This document shows, piece after piece, positions 46,572 through 57,342 of a stretch of DNA of 64,000 nucleotides (the stretch's first letter is position 1; the number at the start of each line of letters is the position of its first letter). Made by a program: the position numbers and the translations under genes. The notes beneath the pieces are model-generated. The model did not search any database, was not told the origin of the DNA, and worked only from the letters and a program-made list of their open reading frames with translations. The stretch is from Gammaproteobacteria bacterium. GTDB lineage: Bacteria; Pseudomonadota; Gammaproteobacteria; JABABF01. Location of the stretch: the NCBI GenBank assembly GCA_965237805.1, contig OZ250153.1, forward strand, positions 992,001 to 1,056,000, read 5' to 3'.

Positions 46572-47429
46572 TCAGCGCGTGGCACCAGTGCCACGTGACG
46601 GCTTGGCCTTCTCTGCGGAACGCCCGCCGCCTGACGCCTCGGTCTGCACTGTCTCTAATTGCGACCATTTCCCGATCACCTGGTCCAGATCGCCATCATG
46701 CTCTGCTGACAAGGCGTAGAACTGGGAGCGGAACAACTTGCCGAAGTTCAATTTGTCCAAGGCGATGTTGAGCAGCTCCCAGCGTCCTTCTGCTTGGCGG
46801 CGTTGCAGGCGGTAATAAATGTGGATCGGCTCGCTACCGACGCCGGCGACCAACTGCTCGACCGTCACTTTGCCAGTGGCACTCGCCGCCTTGCCAGGCA
46901 GAGTTTCGACTGTGATATCACCCAAGCGCAGCACCGTGAGGAAGATGCCACCGTAGTTGCGCACCAACCCGACGAGGAACAGCTCGGCAAATCGGTCGAT
47001 TTGGGCGGCACGCAGCTCGAGCTCAGCAGGCGACAGTGCCGCCAAGGACTTGGCGCTACCATAGACGCCCATCACGCCGAGCGCGAAGTGGCGGAAACTC
47101 ACCATTTCGGTCATCGTCTGCGCTATTTGAGCAAAAAATATATCTTGATCGCCGCCGTCTTTGATCTGGGCGCGACTCTGTGCCAACAGGTATCCGGTGA
47201 GCTCGCGCACGACGAGCTGTGCCTCCACCGCCAAATCCGCTGCGGGCGAGGGCTTGGCCGCGACCGCCGGTTTCGCAGCTGGCGATACTTTGGTCGGGGG
47301 GTTGGCTCTATCCACCGCACGGGTAGTAGGGCTGAGGCTCAACACCACTGCCATCGCCACGGCGCACAGACCGACAGCATGGCCTCTCGCCGACCAAATT
47401 CCCTTGCCACGCAGTTGCATGCCCGCCAT
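46572..47429 (-). CDS. mlaC: MlaC/Ttg2D-family periplasmic phospholipid shuttle
   Basis: Signal peptide; F..FALGVMG.Y, Q..RF..LF..GL..NY, I.YRL, W.L.NI, NFGKLFRSQF, LD.VI..W; position upstream of murA. Confidence 0.8.
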   Translation of the reverse strand: MAGMQLRGKGIWSARGHAVGLCAVAMAVVLSLSPTTRAVDRANPPTKVSPAAKPAVAAKPSPAADLAVEAQLVVRELTGYLLAQSRAQIKDGGDQDIFFAQIAQTMTEMVSFRHFALGVMGVYGSAKSLAALSPAELELRAAQIDRFAELFLVGLVRNYGGIFLTVLRLGDITVETLPGKAASATGKVTVEQLVAGVGSEPIHIYYRLQRRQAEGRWELLNIALDKLNFGKLFRSQFYALSAEHDGDLDQVIGKWSQLETVQTEASGGGRSAEKAKPSRGTGATR

Positions 47430-47482
47430 TATACGCACCAACCATGGCCATACCGCTAAAGTAAAATAGCTATTGCACACTC

Positions 47483-48429: not shown

Positions 48430-49416
48430 ATGGTGCACACCACTAGCGACCCCGCCACGCTGGTTGAAATCGGGCGCCGCACGTTGCGCCTTGAGCGCAA
48501 TGCCATGGCGCAGCTGGAGCAACGCATCGGCGCAGACTTTGCACAGGCCTGTGAGTTGATACTGCACTGCACGGGGCGCGTCATCGTCGCCGGTATGGGA
48601 AAATCTGGACATGTGGCACGCAAAATTGCCTCCACACTGGCCAGCACTGGCACACCAGCAGCATTCCTCCATCCGGCGGAGGCCTGCCACGGCGACTTGG
48701 GTATGGTCATGTCCACTGACTTGGTCATCGCGCTGTCACAGTCCGGCAGGGCGGCGGAGCTGCTCACTGTGGCACCACTACTCAAGCGCCAGCAGATCCC
48801 CTTGATCTGCATGTCCGGCGACGGCAGCTCGCCGCTGGCCCAAGCCGCCACACTCTGGCTCGACACCAGCGTCGAGGCGGAGGCCTGCCCCTTGGATCTA
48901 GCGCCGACCGCCAGTTCCACCGTGATGTTGGCCTTGGGTGATGCCCTCGCCATCGCGCTGTTGGAGGCGCGCGGCTTCACCCGCCAAGACTTCGCTTTGG
49001 CTCACCCGGGAGGTGCCTTGGGGCGCAGACTGCTGCTCCAAGTCGACCAACTGATGCAGAGCGCCGAGAAAATGCCCCGGGTGAGCCGCAATGCCAGCTT
49101 GGCCGATGCCATCGTCGAGATGAGTGCCAAGGGGCTCGGCATGACGACCATAGTCGATGATGACGGCATGTTGCTGGGAGTGTTCACCGACGGCGACCTG
49201 CGACGCGCTTTCGACACCAACTTGGCACCGCAACAAGTGCCGATCCGCGAGCTGATGACCCCTGGCGGACGCACCATCGCCCTCGACACACTGGCGGCGA
49301 CGGCAATGGCAGAAATGGAACGCCATCGCACGACATCGCTGGTCTGCGTCGATGGCTCGGGGCGGCCAGTTGGCGTCGTCCATCTGCACGCGCTACTTAA
49401 TGCCGGTGTCGAGTGA
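48430..49416 (+). CDS. kdsD: Arabinose-5-phosphate isomerase
   Basis: GMGKSGH, HPAEA.HGDLG, EACPLDLAPTAS, HPGGALG, CBS pair with FTDGDLRR. Confidence 0.95.
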   Translation: MVHTTSDPATLVEIGRRTLRLERNAMAQLEQRIGADFAQACELILHCTGRVIVAGMGKSGHVARKIASTLASTGTPAAFLHPAEACHGDLGMVMSTDLVIALSQSGRAAELLTVAPLLKRQQIPLICMSGDGSSPLAQAATLWLDTSVEAEACPLDLAPTASSTVMLALGDALAIALLEARGFTRQDFALAHPGGALGRRLLLQVDQLMQSAEKMPRVSRNASLADAIVEMSAKGLGMTTIVDDDGMLLGVFTDGDLRRAFDTNLAPQQVPIRELMTPGGRTIALDTLAATAMAEMERHRTTSLVCVDGSGRPVGVVHLHALLNAGVE

Positions 49417-49966
49417 TCGCGATGCGGCGGCGCTAGGTGCCGCCGCATCGCTGGATCGTTGCCCCCCCCAGCTGCGGCAGCGACTGGCGCGCATCCGTTT
49501 GCTGTCGCTTGATGTCGACGGCGTGCTGACCGACGGTCGCCTCTATCTCAGCGGCGATGACGAATTCAAGGCCTTTAATGCCCGTGACGGTGTTGGCATC
49601 ATGGCGGTGCGCCGCGCTGGCATCGAAGTCGCGATCTGCTCTGCCCGCCCCTCGGCCGCCACCGTCGCCCGCGCCCGCGACTTGGGCATAGAGCACCTGA
49701 GACAAGGCGATGAAGACAAGGCTCAGCTGTTGCTGGCACTGTGCCAGCAGCTGAGTATCGATCCCAGCTGCGCCATTCATATGGGTGACGACTTGGCCGA
49801 TTTGTCGGCGCTACGCTGTGCCGGGATCGGTGCCACCGTCGCCGACGCCCACCCCGCTGCACTGGCCACAGCCGAGTGGTGCAGCATGAAAAAAGGTGGT
49901 CACGGTGCCGTGCGCGAGCTGTGCGACCTGCTGCTGGCAGCCCGCGAAGCCGAGGACAAACCCTGA
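49400..49966 (+). CDS. kdsC: KDO-8-phosphate phosphatase
   Basis: DVDGVLTDG, F.ARDG.GI, GDDLAD, GGHGAVRE. Confidence 0.95.
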   Translation: MPVSSDRDAAALGAAASLDRCPPQLRQRLARIRLLSLDVDGVLTDGRLYLSGDDEFKAFNARDGVGIMAVRRAGIEVAICSARPSAATVARARDLGIEHLRQGDEDKAQLLLALCQQLSIDPSCAIHMGDDLADLSALRCAGIGATVADAHPAALATAEWCSMKKGGHGAVRELCDLLLAAREAEDKP

Positions 49967-51066
49967 GTCGTTTTGGCCGCACGACGCTCGGCTTGGCTTG
50001 GGTCGTTGCAATCGCCGCCGCACCCGATGCCACCAGCGCAGATGGTGTTTTCCATGGTGTGGAGCTGTTGCGCTTCAAGCATAAGCAGGGCACGGCGACG
50101 CAATTGCTCGCGCAACGTGCACGGCAGTTGCCCCGAGATGATGCGTGGCGGGTGGAGCAGCTGCAACTGCGTGGTTTGGATGCCCACGGCGCGCCTTGGC
50201 AGCTGAGTGCGGCAACTGGCGAGCTGCGCTCAGGCGACGCCCTACAGCTGCGCGGTGATGTCGTGATGGAGGGTCGCGGGCCGGACGGTGCGGCGCTGCA
50301 TCTCAACGCCCCGCAGCTACTTTTGCAACTGGAGCGGCAACACGGTAGCGGGGATGGTCTGCTGGAGTTGCGCTGGGGCAATCGTCGATTGCGCGGGTAC
50401 GGCTTTGAATTCTCCCTTGCAGAGCGGTGGCTGCAGTTGTCGCAGGATACGCAGAGTTGGATCGGAGATGCAATGGCAACGCAGCATAGCGGACATGCGC
50501 TGGAGCTGCGAGCCGACTCCGCACGCTGGGAATGGCGCCCAGCTGGGCATCTGTTGCGCTACGATGGCCGTGTGCACTATGTGGATGAAGCGCTAGAATT
50601 GCATGCGAAACAACTGTCGCTCCGACATCGAGAGGATGACGCCGCGGTCGTGCAGAGCGCCGTCGCCACTGGCGATCCGGTACATTTCCGCCACACTACC
50701 ACCGAGCTCGGCAAGGTGGTGGATGGCTATGCGCGGCACATAGAATACGATCGCCAACAACAGCGCATTGTGCTGCGCGGCGGAGCGCGTCTGCAGCACG
50801 GAAAACGCTGGCTGGAGGGAGCACGCATCGACTACCACGAAGCCACCATGCATGCCGTCGCCACCGGCACCCCAGCACGCTTCCACCACATGCCGACGGG
50901 TCATGGCAAGGTAGTAGACGGCCAAGCGCGGCGCATAGAATACGATCACCGTCTGCAACGCATCGTGCTACAAGATGCCGCTCGCCTGCGGCGCGACGAA
51001 CGCTGGCTGGAGAGCGAGCGTATCGACTACCACCTGCCCACAACCACGCCGGGTGCCGCGCCATGA
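49963..51066 (+). CDS. LptC-LptA fusion protein with duplicated LptA C-terminal half
   Basis: Single ORF between kdsC and lptB. The N-half is LptC-like (PWQLSA..G, L.L.GDV, RG.G.E.SL); the C-half is LptA/OstA-like (L.ADS, Y.G.V, A.ATG.P..F, G.A..IEYD, I.L.G.A.L, G.RIDY). Start uncertain (CTG 49963 or TTG 49993). Confidence 0.75.
   Translation: MSRFGRTTLGLAWVVAIAAAPDATSADGVFHGVELLRFKHKQGTATQLLAQRARQLPRDDAWRVEQLQLRGLDAHGAPWQLSAATGELRSGDALQLRGDVVMEGRGPDGAALHLNAPQLLLQLERQHGSGDGLLELRWGNRRLRGYGFEFSLAERWLQLSQDTQSWIGDAMATQHSGHALELRADSARWEWRPAGHLLRYDGRVHYVDEALELHAKQLSLRHREDDAAVVQSAVATGDPVHFRHTTTELGKVVDGYARHIEYDRQQQRIVLRGGARLQHGKRWLEGARIDYHEATMHAVATGTPARFHHMPTGHGKVVDGQARRIEYDHRLQRIVLQDAARLRRDERWLESERIDYHLPTTTPGAAP
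50659..51033 (+). repeat. Diverged 195-bp tandem duplication (65 aa) inside the LptA-like part
   Basis: GCCGTCGCCAC at 50659 and 50854; ATCGACTACCAC ending at 50838 and 51033; GKVVDG.AR.IEYD twice. Confidence 0.9.
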
Positions 51067-51770
51067 TTTCATTGACTGCCGACGCCCTGCACAAATCCTA
51101 TGGCAGCCATACAGCGGTGCAGGGCTTGTCGCTGCAGCTGCGCGGCGGCCAAGTCTGCGGCCTGTTCGGCCCCAACGGTGCAGGCAAGACCACCGCCTTC
51201 CAAATGATGGCGGGCCTGATCACCCCGGACAAAGGGCGGGTATTGCTCAACGACCAAGACATCACCGCTTGGCCCCTGCCCCGGCGTGCGCGCCGGGGCA
51301 TCGCCTATCTGCCGCAAGACCCTTCAGTATTCCGCGGGCTGTCGGCGCGGGATAACCTCTTGGCCGTGCTCGGCAACACGCGCCACACCCGGCGGGATGC
51401 CGACGAATTGCTGGCACGCTTCGAGCTCGATGCCCACCGCGACACGATGGGTGGCCAATTGTCCGGCGGCGAGCGGCGGCGGCTGGAAATTGCCCGCGCC
51501 ATCGCCTTGGCACCTGATTTCCTGCTGTTGGACGAGCCGCTGGCGGGTATCGACCCGATTGCGGTCGAGGGCATTAAGACCTTGATCGAGCAGTTGCGCC
51601 AAGAGCGGGGCATCGGCATCCTGATCGTCGACCACAACATTCACCAAGCGCTGGCGATGTGCGACCACAGCTGGATTCTGAACCACGGTGCCGTCATCGC
51701 CGAAGGTGATACCGACACCGTGGCGCACTCGGCAATAGTGCGCAAACGGTATCTAGGGGAGGATTTCTAG
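51063..51770 (+). CDS. lptB: LPS export ABC transporter ATPase
   Basis: GPNGAGKTT, YLPQD.SVFR.LS, LSGGERRRLEIARA, LLDEP.AGIDP, YLGEDF. Confidence 0.95.
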   Translation: MISLTADALHKSYGSHTAVQGLSLQLRGGQVCGLFGPNGAGKTTAFQMMAGLITPDKGRVLLNDQDITAWPLPRRARRGIAYLPQDPSVFRGLSARDNLLAVLGNTRHTRRDADELLARFELDAHRDTMGGQLSGGERRRLEIARAIALAPDFLLLDEPLAGIDPIAVEGIKTLIEQLRQERGIGILIVDHNIHQALAMCDHSWILNHGAVIAEGDTDTVAHSAIVRKRYLGEDF

Positions 51771-51839
51771 GGTGTCGCTTTGCCGAATGGGGCGCGCAAG
51801 CACCGGCACCATACAGCGGTTTGACCTCGCCTCGACAAC

Positions 51840-52721
51840 ATGAACGCAGAGACCGAGCCACAACTGATCATCATCAGCGGGCGCTCCGGCTCAGGCAAGA
51901 GCGTCGCCCTGCGGGTCTTGGAAGATGCAGGCTACTACTGTGTGGACAACCTACCCGCCAGCCTGCTCGACGCGCTGATCCACGCCACACTCGGCGACAG
52001 CAGCTCGCCACATCACAAAGTCGCCGTGTCGATCGATGCGCGCAATGTTGGTGAGGACACCCGCGCCATTGTCAAGCAGATCCAACACCAAAAGAAACGT
52101 TTCGCGAATATAGCGATCTATTATTTGGATGCGGCCAACGATATCTTGGTGCGACGTTTCAAAGAAACCCGTCGGCGCCATCCGCTGAGCTCGACGCGCA
52201 TCAGTCTCAAGCAGGCCATCGAATGGGAAGACTCGTTATTGGAGTCGCTGCGCGAAAATGCGTCGCTACTCATTGATACCAGCACGACCAACCTACCCGA
52301 ATTCCGCCAATCCATCATAGATCGCATTGTCAAGCAAGACGGCTTTAGCGAAATCGCCCTACGGCTGATTTCCTTTGGCTATAAAAAAGGTCTGCCGATA
52401 GATGCCGACATGGTGTTCGATGTGCGTTGCCTGCCCAACCCCTACTGGCGCGAGGCGCTACGCGAGCTCGATGGATGCGACCGCGCCGTGCAGGCTTATT
52501 TGAGCAAGAACCGTGATGTTATCAAAATGCGCAAAGGGATCGAGAGTTTCATCAGCGACTGGATCCCCGCCTTCCAGCGCGAGCATCGGCATTACCTATC
52601 CATCGCCATTGGCTGCACCGGCGGGCAGCACCGCTCGGTGTATCTGTGCGAGGCACTGGCCAAGCAATTCCGGCGTCAATTGGGCAATGTCAGCGTCCAA
52701 CACCGAGAATTGATGGGCTGA
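51840..52721 (+). CDS. rapZ: RNase adapter RapZ
   Basis: SGRSGSGKS, VDNLP, ETRRRHPL, SFGYKKG, DVRCLPNPYW, GCTGGQHRSV. Confidence 0.96.
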   Translation: MNAETEPQLIIISGRSGSGKSVALRVLEDAGYYCVDNLPASLLDALIHATLGDSSSPHHKVAVSIDARNVGEDTRAIVKQIQHQKKRFANIAIYYLDAANDILVRRFKETRRRHPLSSTRISLKQAIEWEDSLLESLRENASLLIDTSTTNLPEFRQSIIDRIVKQDGFSEIALRLISFGYKKGLPIDADMVFDVRCLPNPYWREALRELDGCDRAVQAYLSKNRDVIKMRKGIESFISDWIPAFQREHRHYLSIAIGCTGGQHRSVYLCEALAKQFRRQLGNVSVQHRELMG

Positions 52722-54219: not shown

Positions 54220-57132
54220 TCAGGGCTCTGTCAGCTCGGCATCCGCAGCTTGCTCGGATAACACAGCGGCCGTCTCTGCGGGCGGTGGCTCAGCCTGTCG
54301 CTTGCCCAATTCCAAGTCTGCCCACGGCCCCTTGATGGTATAGACAACATGTGCCAAGCGGTTCACCCCAGAGCCGACAATTTTGCTTGCCAGCCAAGTG
54401 CCAGCAAAAAGCAACGGCACACTACCGACAGCAATCAGCGCCATCAACGGTAGATTGTCGGCCAAATACAGCGTCACATCCAGCTCGCCATCGACAGTCC
54501 CCGCAACCAAGTCAGCCTCGCCACGCAACACAAACTTTCCCTCATTGGCACCGACTGTGGTGCCGTAATCGGGGTCGAAGTGCAAGCGGCCATCCGCCAT
54601 AAAGGCGCGTGCCTGCACTTCCTGGAAGCGCAGGCCATGGCTCTCCAGAGAGCGCAGGCTCGGCAACACGCCACGCAAGATATTGCTGAAGCTGAGCAAG
54701 CCGATCACCTTGAGTATTCCCGGTCGCTCGACATCGGGGAACTCGCCCCGCCCCAGCTCGAAGCGTATGTCGCCGCGCAATGTTTGCAAATCGAAGTCGG
54801 CCAGCTCCCCGGGCCAAGAGAGTGTGGCGAGCAAATGCCCGTCTTTGCCTGTCACGACTGGAGCCACGCCCAGCTGTGTGAACAACTCGCCCATATCCGG
54901 TATTTCCAAGCCGCCTTCAAACAGCGTTGTCCAGCCATCTTCGTCCAGCCATTGCACCATCTTGGCACCGGTGCCGTCTGCGGCACTGCTGCGTAGGGTG
55001 ATCCCCGCTTTGTCCGCGTACATGTTTTCTACCAGCATCCGGCGCACACCCGCATAGACATCGAAACGCCAAACACCGAGATCGTACTTGCCCATGTGAA
55101 ATGAATCGACCGTGACTGGCACCCACACCGTATCGGTAGATTCCGGCAGACGGCTGGGTCGGAAGGTCCTCATCGCAGTGGTGGTCACCGACGGCAGTGT
55201 TGACTGCGCTATCGCCAACAAATTGGGCAGGCGGACGAATTCACAATGGCCGTATACCTGCGCATCGCCATAGCGCTGCGAGAAAACCGCACGGGCATAA
55301 GGAGCCTCTATGCTGAGGGTCCAGCTGCTCTCCGTCGTGCGCAACACGCCGAGCCCACTAGGCATCGGGGCTCGGAATATCTCGGCCGCGTCATAGTTCA
55401 TTGTCACTGCGCCTAACACCCCATCGAAATCGATAACCCCCGATATGTTGTCGAAGATCAGCCCGCGGATGATCATCAGATCCCAATTGTCGTAATGCCC
55501 CGTGACCCGGATGCGATTGGACACATCCAAGATATCCCCCGGTTTGTCCAGCGCCATGTCCACAGACAGTTCGCGCAATACACCTGCGCTGGTGCCCGTG
55601 GCAAACCACTCTGGCATCACTTCGTCAAAGGCCGCGATGGGCATATGGTTTATCAATTCGATGAACTCCAGCTCGCGAATATTTGCTTGGCCTGATACGC
55701 TGTCCAATTCGCCGGTGTTCGACAGCCGCAATTGGAGATTGCTCACCGTGGCGACGCCGTCGCCCTGCGACATGTGCAGCTGGGCCGAAGGGATTTCAAC
55801 CACCGCCGCATCCTCATAGAAATTGATGTGCACTTTGGCATCAAACTCACGATAAGGCAGCACGGTGCCGTAGACCGCAGGCACCCAAAGTGCCAGCTGC
55901 ATCCCCTCCAGCGACCTCCCTGCCAGCTGCGACCCTTCCAGCTGCAACCCCTCCAGCTGCGACCCCTCCAGCTGAGCCCGGATCAAGCCCGGCACGGCCA
56001 ACAGCTCGCCGGACACACCGGCAAAGCCCGGCACACCAGCGATCAAGGGGACGGCTTGCAGCCCCTTGAAGCGCATGGAGATTTCCGGCAGCAACGGTTT
56101 ACCCGGTCGGCTGCGGCTCAGCGACAGCCGCAGTTTGCTCACCGTGCCGCCAATCTGCAGTTGCTTCAGTGCAGACCAGCCCAAGGCCTCCGCCATACCG
56201 GAGTCGGACAAAGAGGCGGCCAAAGTGCCGAGATCCAAATTGTCTATGTACATGCTGTAGAGATCGGCATTAGGCCATGCGACCGGGATATCCGGCACCC
56301 GCACCGAACGCCCCAAGTAGTCAAAACGCAGCGCACGCAGACTACCGCGCCAAGTGTCCCGCCCCGAGCTGAAGCCATCGACAGTACCCTCCACCGCGCT
56401 GGCCGCCATCTCGGCTTCGCCCGAACGCAACGTCAGTTGCGGGCTGTTAAAAGCGGCGGCCCGCGTGGTGATGCGGTGCCAGAAGGGGCCCGCCCGCCCG
56501 CTGCGTAGATAGACATGCAAAGCGGGGGCATGTAAAGAGGGCGCAGCATCACCACTACCAAACTGCATTGCGATGCTGCCACGCAAGGAGCTGTGCCAAG
56601 ACAAAGGCCCCAATGGTGCGTTTAATGCCTGCTCGATCGAAATGCGCAGCTGCGCACCGCCCTCCTGCTCGACATGCAGGCGGCAGTCCCGCAGCTCGTG
56701 GTTGGTAATATGCAACCGTCGTAGCAGCTCCCCAACACCCCATGCGGACTGCTTGCTCGCAGCGGACGCGCTCGGTGCCAGAGCTAAGTTCAGCTGGCAA
56801 CCACGCACCACCACGTGGCTCAGCGATAGGCTCCGCGTCCACAAACTGCGCAACAAATTCACTCGCAGCTCGATATATGCGCTGCTAAAAATCCCACTGG
56901 GAGCGGTGATATGGAGATTGCGCAATACAATGCGTGGGTGCCATTGAAAGCCGTCTGTTTCCACTTCGGCAGCGAGGGAAGCTCCGGCGTGTACGCGTGC
57001 GGCTGCGACCAATTCATCCCATCCATCCTCAAGACTGTGGACGTAGACTCGAGCCAAGTTGACCGCTACCGCCCCCAAAGCCAGCACCAGCACTAGGCTG
57101 ATCAGAGCTAGGCGTAATGAAAATTTGAACAT
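54220..57132 (-). CDS. yhdP: YhdP/AsmA-like intermembrane phospholipid bridge protein (~970 aa, short)
   Basis: N-terminal TM helix, WHPRIVL, LLRSL, PGFAGVSG, LSWPG, G.DL...T.D, YTIKGPW.D (AsmA_2-like end); expected locus; GTG at 57156 is an alternative start. Confidence 0.8.
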   Translation of the reverse strand: MFKFSLRLALISLVLVLALGAVAVNLARVYVHSLEDGWDELVAAARVHAGASLAAEVETDGFQWHPRIVLRNLHITAPSGIFSSAYIELRVNLLRSLWTRSLSLSHVVVRGCQLNLALAPSASAASKQSAWGVGELLRRLHITNHELRDCRLHVEQEGGAQLRISIEQALNAPLGPLSWHSSLRGSIAMQFGSGDAAPSLHAPALHVYLRSGRAGPFWHRITTRAAAFNSPQLTLRSGEAEMAASAVEGTVDGFSSGRDTWRGSLRALRFDYLGRSVRVPDIPVAWPNADLYSMYIDNLDLGTLAASLSDSGMAEALGWSALKQLQIGGTVSKLRLSLSRSRPGKPLLPEISMRFKGLQAVPLIAGVPGFAGVSGELLAVPGLIRAQLEGSQLEGLQLEGSQLAGRSLEGMQLALWVPAVYGTVLPYREFDAKVHINFYEDAAVVEIPSAQLHMSQGDGVATVSNLQLRLSNTGELDSVSGQANIRELEFIELINHMPIAAFDEVMPEWFATGTSAGVLRELSVDMALDKPGDILDVSNRIRVTGHYDNWDLMIIRGLIFDNISGVIDFDGVLGAVTMNYDAAEIFRAPMPSGLGVLRTTESSWTLSIEAPYARAVFSQRYGDAQVYGHCEFVRLPNLLAIAQSTLPSVTTTAMRTFRPSRLPESTDTVWVPVTVDSFHMGKYDLGVWRFDVYAGVRRMLVENMYADKAGITLRSSAADGTGAKMVQWLDEDGWTTLFEGGLEIPDMGELFTQLGVAPVVTGKDGHLLATLSWPGELADFDLQTLRGDIRFELGRGEFPDVERPGILKVIGLLSFSNILRGVLPSLRSLESHGLRFQEVQARAFMADGRLHFDPDYGTTVGANEGKFVLRGEADLVAGTVDGELDVTLYLADNLPLMALIAVGSVPLLFAGTWLASKIVGSGVNRLAHVVYTIKGPWADLELGKRQAEPPPAETAAVLSEQAADAELTEP
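55891..55974. repeat. About six imperfect 15-bp tandem units encoding QLEGS-QLEGL-QLEGS-QLAGR-SLEGM-QLA
   Basis: (C/T)(T/G)CCAGC-starting units at 55891, 55906, 55921, 55936, 55951 and 55966. Confidence 0.85.
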
Positions 57133-57342
57133 GGTGCTCCACAGCTGCTTAAACACCCTGAGAACAAATGTCGGATCGGGCCAATCCACCGCTCGACACA
57201 CCGCAATGCGAACAAAATATGGCTTGCGCCAAAGCACGTCGGGCTCGGCTGGCTATTTTACAATAGACGCTGATTGCATCGCATATACTTTAGTCAGAAA
57301 ACGCAATGTCTCAGCAACCATATCAGGGCAATCACGCCGATC

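Follow-up and report, generated by a model that had tools for sequence, protein, structure and literature searches.

A natural LptC-LptA fusion with an extra LptA half module, probably functional, at the lpt locus of a small gammaproteobacterial genome

The window analyzed here is a 64,000-nucleotide (nt) stretch of contig OZ250153.1 (assembly GCA_965237805.1, positions 992,001 to 1,056,000) from a gammaproteobacterium whose genome, labeled G000 in the following, comes as one contig of 1.73 megabases (Mb) and is 97% complete. At the position of LptC between kdsC and lptB, the window holds a single gene in which LptC and LptA, two components of the lipopolysaccharide (LPS) bridge, follow each other in one unbroken frame with no signal peptide between them. 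The genes concerned are, in coordinates of the window:

49352..49966, + strand: kdsC, the upstream gene, encoding a KDO 8-phosphate phosphatase of the HAD family (Pfam Hydrolase_3 and Hydrolase)
49921..51066, + strand: fused lptC-lptA gene, 381 amino acids (aa) from the likely GTG start (open frame, Pfam LptC and LptD_N, public gene call)
51063..51770, + strand: lptB, encoding an ABC ATPase (Pfam ABC_tran), whose own ATG overlaps the TGA of the fusion by 4 nt

No stop codon interrupts the frame across 49876..51066 (+). A first-pass annotation of this DNA had described an uninterrupted open reading frame (ORF) of ~367 aa beginning at CTG 49963, a codon that overlaps the kdsC stop. The uninterrupted frame holds, whereas the start likely lies upstream at GTG 49921, because this GTG opens the public gene call P0002 (381 aa) and is matched in G001, a genome of the same genus, whose homologue starts with GTG, has the identical 46-nt overlap with kdsC and shares the same first residues. 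Residues are numbered throughout on the 367-aa form P0001, in which residue 1 corresponds to position 49963.

Both protein families lie on this one ORF, and its N-terminal half is LptC-like, as had been proposed for a natural LptC-LptA fusion. The LptC family PF06835 covers residues 19-164 with its profile positions 25-171 of 175 and scores 46 bits (cut-off 21), and the LptA/LptD_N family PF03968 matches two stretches, the best of which covers residues 196-294 with 77.7 bits against a cut-off of 20.4. The chain is laid out as follows:

49921..50040, + strand: N-terminal basic region, short hydrophobic core and small-residue site before DGVF (hydropathy comparison)
50041..50460, + strand: LptC beta-jellyroll, residues 27-166 (Pfam, AlphaFold2, Foldseek)
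50461..50499, + strand: polar linker of 13 residues (167-179), aligning with the tail of the free LptC P0145 (predicted local distance difference test, pLDDT, ~64)
50500..50658, + strand: LptA N-terminal half, residues 180-232, ungapped against the free LptA P0003 from its residue 22 (Pfam LptD_N; pLDDT 89-97)
50659..50853, + strand: LptA C-terminal half, copy 1, residues 233-297 (repeat analysis; pLDDT >89; 50/65 identical to copy 1 of P0003)
50854..51048, + strand: LptA C-terminal half, copy 2 (the extra half module), residues 298-362 (51/65 identical to copy 2 of P0003)

The junction sequence cited in the first-pass annotation is present, and the linker residues are polar and contain no hydrophobic core. 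Unlike the usual soluble periplasmic LptA, the LptA part has no signal peptide of its own, and only the N-terminus of the LptC part can direct its export. The reported tandem duplication of the last 65 residues of LptA was recovered as well, with the two copies aligning at 39/65 identical aa and 135/195 identical nt. The duplicated unit is the C-terminal half of LptA: a LptA profile of the genus matches the ORF twice, the second time with its positions 56-127 of 127. Tandem Repeats Finder returned no repeat at a score of 30 or more, because the two copies are too diverged.

Support for the junction comes from the contigs of two public sequencing runs, which span 49900-51100 in one piece, free of indels and stops, at word depths of 64.5 and 24.4. 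Three substitutions distinguish them from the assembly, of which those at 50238 and 50493 are silent and the third, A>G at 50473, replaces linker residue Met171 with Val. At this last site the assembly reads ATG and the contigs of both runs read GTG, which points to either a polymorphic site or an error in the consensus; GGAG stands 5 nt upstream of the codon. In addition, G001, a separate assembly of 290 contigs, encodes a collinear fusion of 313 aa that is identical at 136/289 positions and has no extra half. If lptC and lptA were in truth separate genes, an indel or a collapsed stretch would have had to fake the open frame. Such an error could be suspected in a single assembly, the more so as both sets of run contigs derive from one sample, which is possibly the source of that assembly. 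However, the contigs of the two runs were built independently and agree, the exact in-frame loss of a 21-residue signal peptide described below is not expected from an error, and the gene is also fused in G001 and in four more genomes. Because the run contigs agree and a separate assembly carries the fusion, we consider an assembly or sequencing artefact very unlikely.

Among 15 billion public proteins, the nearest relatives of the fusion are the products of split lptC and lptA genes. P0003, a free LptA of 209 aa, is identical to residues 176-367 at 148/192 positions (77%); its alignment runs ungapped from LELRADS, directly behind a 21-residue signal peptide, and includes both copies of the half module. 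P0145, a stand-alone LptC of 173 aa, is identical at 107/140 positions over the jellyroll (residues 27-166, 76%). Each of the two proteins is encoded on a metagenome contig of 8045 nt. These matches also bear on an origin of the LptA-like half by internal duplication of LptC instead of fusion with lptA. LptC and LptA do share one fold and one Pfam clan, and short mixed LptC/LptA proteins exist in the same family (G002 and G003, see below). Nevertheless, with one part of the chain this close to a free LptA that bears its own signal peptide, and the other equally close to a free LptC on a contig of matching size, an internal duplication has next to no chance of being the explanation.

The C-terminal end of P0145 reads SWITDAAARRGGHAP. 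In the fusion, the linker is SWIGDAMATQHSGHA, with LELRADS directly after it, and it aligns with the P0145 tail; judged from this alignment, the linker derives from the former C-terminal tail of LptC. Two other accounts of the junction were rejected, as the P0145 tail matches better: that SGHA in the linker is a remnant of the signal-peptide end, and that a frameshifting 31-nt deletion was the fusion event. Relative to the split genes, the fused gene would instead lack the last lptC codon, the stop codon and the whole lptA signal peptide, a difference for which a single in-frame deletion would account, and the join sits at the mature N-terminus of LptA. A simple lost stop codon, against which the first-pass annotation had already argued, does not describe this junction, since the whole 21-residue signal peptide of the closest unfused relative is gone and the linker corresponds to the former LptC tail.

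The comparison with P0003 also orders the two events. Between G000 and P0003, the LptA N-terminal half, copy 1 and copy 2 are identical at 42/53, 50/65 and 51/65 positions, respectively (77-79%), while the two copies within P0003 match each other at only 35/65 positions, similar to the 39/65 in G000. As the three LptA segments are equally conserved and the copies lie far apart, the extra half appears to be old and under constraint. Because the free, signal peptide-bearing P0003 has the extra half too, the duplication is, on these protein alignments, older than the fusion and older than the split between G000 and P0003. The extra half thus presents itself as a property of the LptA of this clade and not as a post-fusion adjustment, which contradicts the earlier suggestion that the duplication is an adaptation tuning the span of the fused bridge.

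A second split pair is found on contigs of 40702 nt and consists of P0005 (LptC, 185 aa) and P0006 (LptA, 132 aa as called). Identity over the LptC part of G000 amounts to 76% with P0145, 67% with P0005 and 56% with G001, and over the LptA part to 80% with the relative on the 8045-nt contig, 63% with that on the 40702-nt contig and 47% with G001. We computed a maximum-likelihood tree from concatenated LptC and LptA rows after cutting the second repeat from two of them; the distant G004 was the outgroup. The fused G000 groups with the split pair of the 8045-nt contigs (support 100/99), and the fused G001 falls outside. Moreover, the linker of G001 is rich in T and A and resembles the tail of P0005, not the linker of G000. 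The signal-peptide ends of P0003 and P0006 are alike, which argues that the split state is ancestral to both. Because the tree places a split pair with G000 and leaves G001 outside, the simplest reading is that two independent fusions took place within the genus, each with loss of the signal peptide and a join at the LE with which mature LptA starts. A scan of metagenome contigs with the LptA alignment gave 105 pattern matches but no relative, and a scan of genome contigs gave no locus beyond that of G001.

To describe the fold of the chain, we used an AlphaFold2 model computed from a curated 38-row alignment, with a mean pLDDT of 83 and a predicted template modeling (pTM) score of 0.77; an initial model from a 134-row alignment, in which LptC rows were misaligned, was poor (pLDDT 66). 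Mean pLDDT in blocks of ten residues is ~83-97 over residues 31-170, 64 for 171-180 and 89-97 over 181-300. Foldseek matched the LptC part to 6mit_C, 4b54_A, 3my2 and 9doq_C at target-normalised template modeling (TM) scores of 0.74-0.85, and found the LptA or LptH structures 2r1a, 2r19 and 4uu4 at 0.72-0.83; no solved chain among these matches covers both the LptC and the LptA half. A sequence search against solved structures gave weak LptA matches (E 0.04-0.15). The structural check proposed in the first-pass annotation, a continuous groove in an AlphaFold model, accordingly turned out in part: the LptC and LptA folds are recovered, whereas copy 2 reaches a pLDDT of only 40-68 for residues 311-367 and a groove that runs on through the join and the extra half would be hypothetical. 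In the underlying alignment, copy 2 is covered by P0003 alone.

A complex prediction of residues 176-367 with residues 100-272 of LptD scored 0.58, against 0.00 for the best of three controls, and lends weak support to this textbook pair. For calibration, the mark was reached by 58/80 solved complexes and by 2/110 mismatched pairs; with a score of at most 0.60, those reaching it were only 7 of the 80 solved complexes but both mismatches. The prediction runs share at least 94% of contacts, and the pLDDT of the partners is at least 77. As LptA and LptD are such a familiar pair, the result may reflect likeness to solved complexes.

The fusion appears to be the only source of LptC and LptA in this genome. 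PF06835 has a genome-wide match in the fusion ORF only. In the search for another lptA that the first-pass annotation had suggested, PF03968 at E<=0.01 matched the fusion ORF only (twice), and the LptA profile of the genus at E<=1 found no further LptA with 19 candidates scored. LptD is intact as a 776-aa ORF, with surA (so labeled from its translation) behind it, the genes for LptF and LptG as well as lptB are present, and LptE gave a weak match (21.5 bits against a cut-off of 23). We also considered that the fusion is a decaying gene of a reduced genome, a tolerated or harmful accident whose LptA part or extra half no longer works. The small genome size, the lack between lptB and rapZ of a ptsN that relatives possess, the low folding confidence of copy 2 and the LptE match below cut-off would fit such a scenario. 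It is nonetheless improbable, given that this gene is the sole LptA and LptC of a genome with the remaining pathway intact, that its frame is open over 1.1 kilobases, that the three LptA segments are alike in conservation against the relative, that the run contigs depart from the assembly at three sites of which two are silent, and that four other lineages have a fused gene as their only LptA.

The first-pass annotation had called the N-terminal hydrophobic stretch short and signal-like, and the hydropathy comparison agrees. The core in G000 is an uncharged run of 15 residues with a best 19-residue Kyte-Doolittle mean of 1.29; G001 and P0005 have runs of 11 and 20 residues and values of 1.08 and 1.59. 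Among the LptCs and fusions used for comparison, 10/12 score 1.8-2.8 on the same scale, the exceptions being 1.01 and 1.53. Small residues (TSA, TAA and AAA) stand directly before D-G-V-F in G000, G001 and P0005, where the first LptC strand starts, and the N-terminus of P0145 shows a like pattern by eye. The N-terminus is thus probably a cleavable Sec signal peptide that gives a soluble product, rather than the usual membrane anchor of LptC. E. coli (Escherichia coli) LptC stripped of its membrane anchor is still functional.

Taken together, the gene likely encodes a functional one-chain LptC-LptA(1.5) fusion that supplies both the LptC and the LptA of the LPS bridge. The chain would consist, in order, of a short Sec signal that is presumably cleaved, the LptC jellyroll, the 13-residue linker, mature LptA and the second 65-residue copy. 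By analogy with the known Lpt system, the LptC end would dock edge-to-edge on the periplasmic jellyrolls of LptF/LptG, the LptC and LptA jellyrolls would stack head to tail inside the chain, and the C-terminal edge would meet the jellyroll at the N-terminus of LptD. The path along which LPS slides would be one covalent groove, about 2.5 modules long, and the cell would have no free LptA pool. As the first-pass annotation suggested, such a chain may also differ in its sensitivity to interface inhibitors such as thanatin. In this lineage only, the in-frame deletion would have followed a half-module duplication that arose first, in free LptA.

A functional fusion could also form a bridge of variable length, either because its N-terminus stays a membrane anchor or because chains add head to tail, with the LptA edge of one on the LptC edge of another. 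The 15-residue uncharged core might still anchor the chain, and natural chains with two and four LptA domains and other long LptAs show that length is flexible. On the other hand, all four genus sequences (4/4) combine a short core with small residues that immediately precede the first LptC strand, and in the known system the N-terminal edge of LptC binds LptF, not LptA. We regard this alternative as rather unlikely; the fixed bridge length put forward in the first-pass annotation is itself hypothetical.

Beyond the common sample behind the two contig sets, several points weigh against this functional one-chain bridge. The public runs listed as holding the stretch include no RNA run. At E<=0.01, PF03968 missed the N-terminal domain of the genome's own LptD, so this model is not fully sensitive here, and the low pLDDT of copy 2 does not favor a groove that continues through the extra half. 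The location of P0145 and P0003 on the same contig is probable from the equal size of 8045 nt, the in-frame deletion is a reconstruction from proteins, and cleavage of the N-terminus is read from hydropathy and small residues.

We compared the fusion with known systems. Its LptC and LptA parts share with E. coli LptC and LptA the position between kdsC and lptB, the two Pfam families and the jellyroll folds (2r19/2r1a for LptA; 3my2/4b54 and 6mit_C for LptC). In contrast to the separate genes of E. coli (kdsD-kdsC-lptC-lptA-lptB), there is one polypeptide here, no free LptA and an extra 65-residue half; LptA is devoid of its own signal peptide, and the N-terminus of LptC looks cleavable and not like a transmembrane anchor. 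In PMC12065857, an engineered E. coli LptC-LptA fusion was made for LPS transport in vitro because free LptA oligomerises, and it bound LptB2FG stably and delivered LPS to LptD in an ATP-dependent (adenosine triphosphate-dependent) manner. In both cases a single chain unites LptC with LptA, but the engineered fusion is man-made and has E. coli domain lengths, whereas the one described here is natural, is the only LptA of its cell, has a linker that comes from the LptC tail and contains 1.5 LptA modules. The in vitro work with the engineered fusion (PMC12065857) supports the feasibility of the proposed mechanism. E. coli lptF suppressor mutants are reported to form an LptC-independent bridge of six proteins (PMC9972910, PMC4986956) and likewise manage with fewer separate periplasmic components; these mutants dispense with LptC and have LptA bound straight to LptF, whereas here both modules are kept and joined.

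Lengthened LptAs are found elsewhere in public data. P0065 (547 aa) has four LptA domains and P0009, P0081 and P0083 have two, which makes them natural LptA oligomers in covalent form; the long LptAs P0015, P0028, P0051, P0106 and P0109 show two partial matches each. As in G000, the jellyroll is extended by whole or partial duplication; these proteins are free, however, and the lengthened LptA described here is also fused to LptC.

A natural LptC-LptA fusion is not unique to G000. A phmmer search of 1.84 billion representative proteins gave 142 matches at E<=0.001, of which seven carry LptC and LptA in one chain: P0004 (the protein of G001, checked for both domains in its full-length form), P0024, P0032, P0034, P0060, P0063 and P0094. 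We further surveyed the class with a profile of eight fused proteins against 400 evenly drawn genomes, one more being unscorable. As matches were taken from the best 150, with 299 weaker ones besides, the fusion counts are lower bounds; the tallies include G043, G145, G311 and G299, which are flagged unpublished and on which no specific claim rests. At least five of the 400 genomes, from four families, have a match without a stop across both domains, namely G000, G039, G056, G194 and G402. The fusions of the latter four were confirmed by ORF reading and Pfam (ORFs of 332-350 aa, three families) and lie at these loci of the L041-L044 group:

G039, C10:79889-80833: fusion locus
G056, C1:262270-263181: fusion locus
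G194, C148:6888-7781: fusion locus
G402, C1:1512329-1513132: fusion locus

In none of these four genomes did PF03968 at E<=0.01 reveal a free LptA; only frames of LptD size were matched. The five fusion carriers have genomes of 1.6-2.0 Mb (rounded sizes, with no statistics on a link to size), and two of the five are complete single-contig genomes. We therefore regard the fused architecture, as far as can be told from these gene models, as rare but recurrent. Including G001, the other natural fusions (G039, G056, G402, G194, P0024, P0032, P0034, P0060, P0063, P0094) combine both domains in a chain of 310-400 aa, as here. Those beyond G001 whose N-termini were read or scored differ in having a long hydrophobic anchor and one LptA module, with P0063, as called, lacking the anchor. 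Among the natural fusions compared, the extra half occurs only in that of the source genome. Identity to the G000 fusion is 17-25% for the others and 46-48% for G001. Full-text literature searches found the one engineered fusion and no description of a natural one. The first-pass annotation had named as a refutation that such fusions are already widespread and described; they do occur in other genomes, but no description in print came up. The natural fusion is a real and probably functional variant of the Lpt bridge.

Long open frames around LptC proved misleading as a marker of fusion: among the 150 LptC matches listed of 402, seven have frames of 320 aa or more, and in all seven candidates LptA lies in another frame. 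The true fusions came from the profile of fused proteins. In G054, G213, G345, G211, G323 and G347, lptC and lptA are in the same frame with one or two stops between them. These genomes are one step from read-through, and a working fusion would also need loss of the signal peptide.

A different arrangement is seen in the sister genera G002 and G003, single-contig genomes that are 95-96% complete. There, kdsC and lptB have a single gene between them, for a membrane-anchored protein of 196 or 204 aa:

G002, L014:1285-1875, - strand: LptC/LptA-like chimera
G003, L006:1093-1707, + strand: LptC/LptA-like chimera

In the G002 protein, residues 21-128 align with the LptC part of the fusion, and a second segment, residues 140-193, aligns with the C-terminal half of LptA (E 3e-6 in both cases). 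The G003 protein matches Pfam LptC at 11-118 and LptD_N at 89-197, each near 1e-10, and its residues 85-194 align with the LptA of the fusion. No other LptA was found in either genome by PF03968 at E<=0.1 or by the genus profile at E<=1, which gave LptD only, and no other LptC exceeds the PF06835 cut-off. In G004, a member of the next family, LptC and LptA are two separate proteins of the ordinary kind. From their alignments, the G002 and G003 proteins look like chimeras that kept the start of LptC and the end of LptA, and a chimera of about one module possibly replaces both proteins. We tentatively propose, at somewhat less than even confidence, that LptC and LptA merged repeatedly in small-genome Gammaproteobacteria, within this family in at least three ways (G000, G001 and G002/G003). 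If this is true, and the proteins make up the whole periplasmic span, about 1 to 1.3 modules in G002 and G003, 2 in G001 and the other fusions and 2.5 in G000 would form a natural test of the number of jellyroll modules required for an LPS bridge, with half-module duplication as a means of length adjustment.

The number of LptA molecules per LPS bridge and the need for its dynamic assembly are open questions in a pathway that is an antibiotic target. Genomes whose only LptA is tied to LptC show that one LptA module per LptC can suffice for life, and that in nature a bridge segment with a covalent link can take the place of free LptA. For structural studies of complete bridges, the fusions would provide LptC-LptA units that are stable from the outset. 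Together with the chimeras of about one module from the sister genera, the 2.5-module chain would represent a natural length series to set against the width of the periplasm and the size of LPS. The loss of exactly the signal peptide, apparently twice in one genus, provides an example of how two secreted partners merge.

The surroundings of the fusion gene correspond to the classical yrb/lpt locus, as ordered in E. coli. The order kdsD-kdsC-lptC/A-lptB is common to G000, G001, G002 and G003. Upstream lie murA, a rhomboid protein gene, a MlaC gene, a Na/Ca exchanger gene, kdsD and kdsC, and downstream lptB, rapZ, mgtE and yhdP, as assigned by Pfam and gene order; the labels murA and kdsD reflect position and the appearance of the translations only. 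In G000, rapZ follows directly after lptB (51770-51840). A ptsN-like gene, labeled by the look of its translation and not by a family search, stands there in G001, G002 and G003 and is absent here; rpoN and hpf are missing from the lpt locus in all four genomes. The YhdP-family protein (54220-57237, - strand) has 1005 aa against 1224 positions of the Pfam model and is seemingly short. As YhdP is a further envelope-spanning lipid-transport protein, its comparison with the lengthened LptA is relevant to periplasm width. Finally, the MlaC homologue (46572-47480, - strand) has 302 aa with a Pfam match confined to residues 106-273, and carries an N-terminal extension of ~100 residues rich in Ala and Pro.

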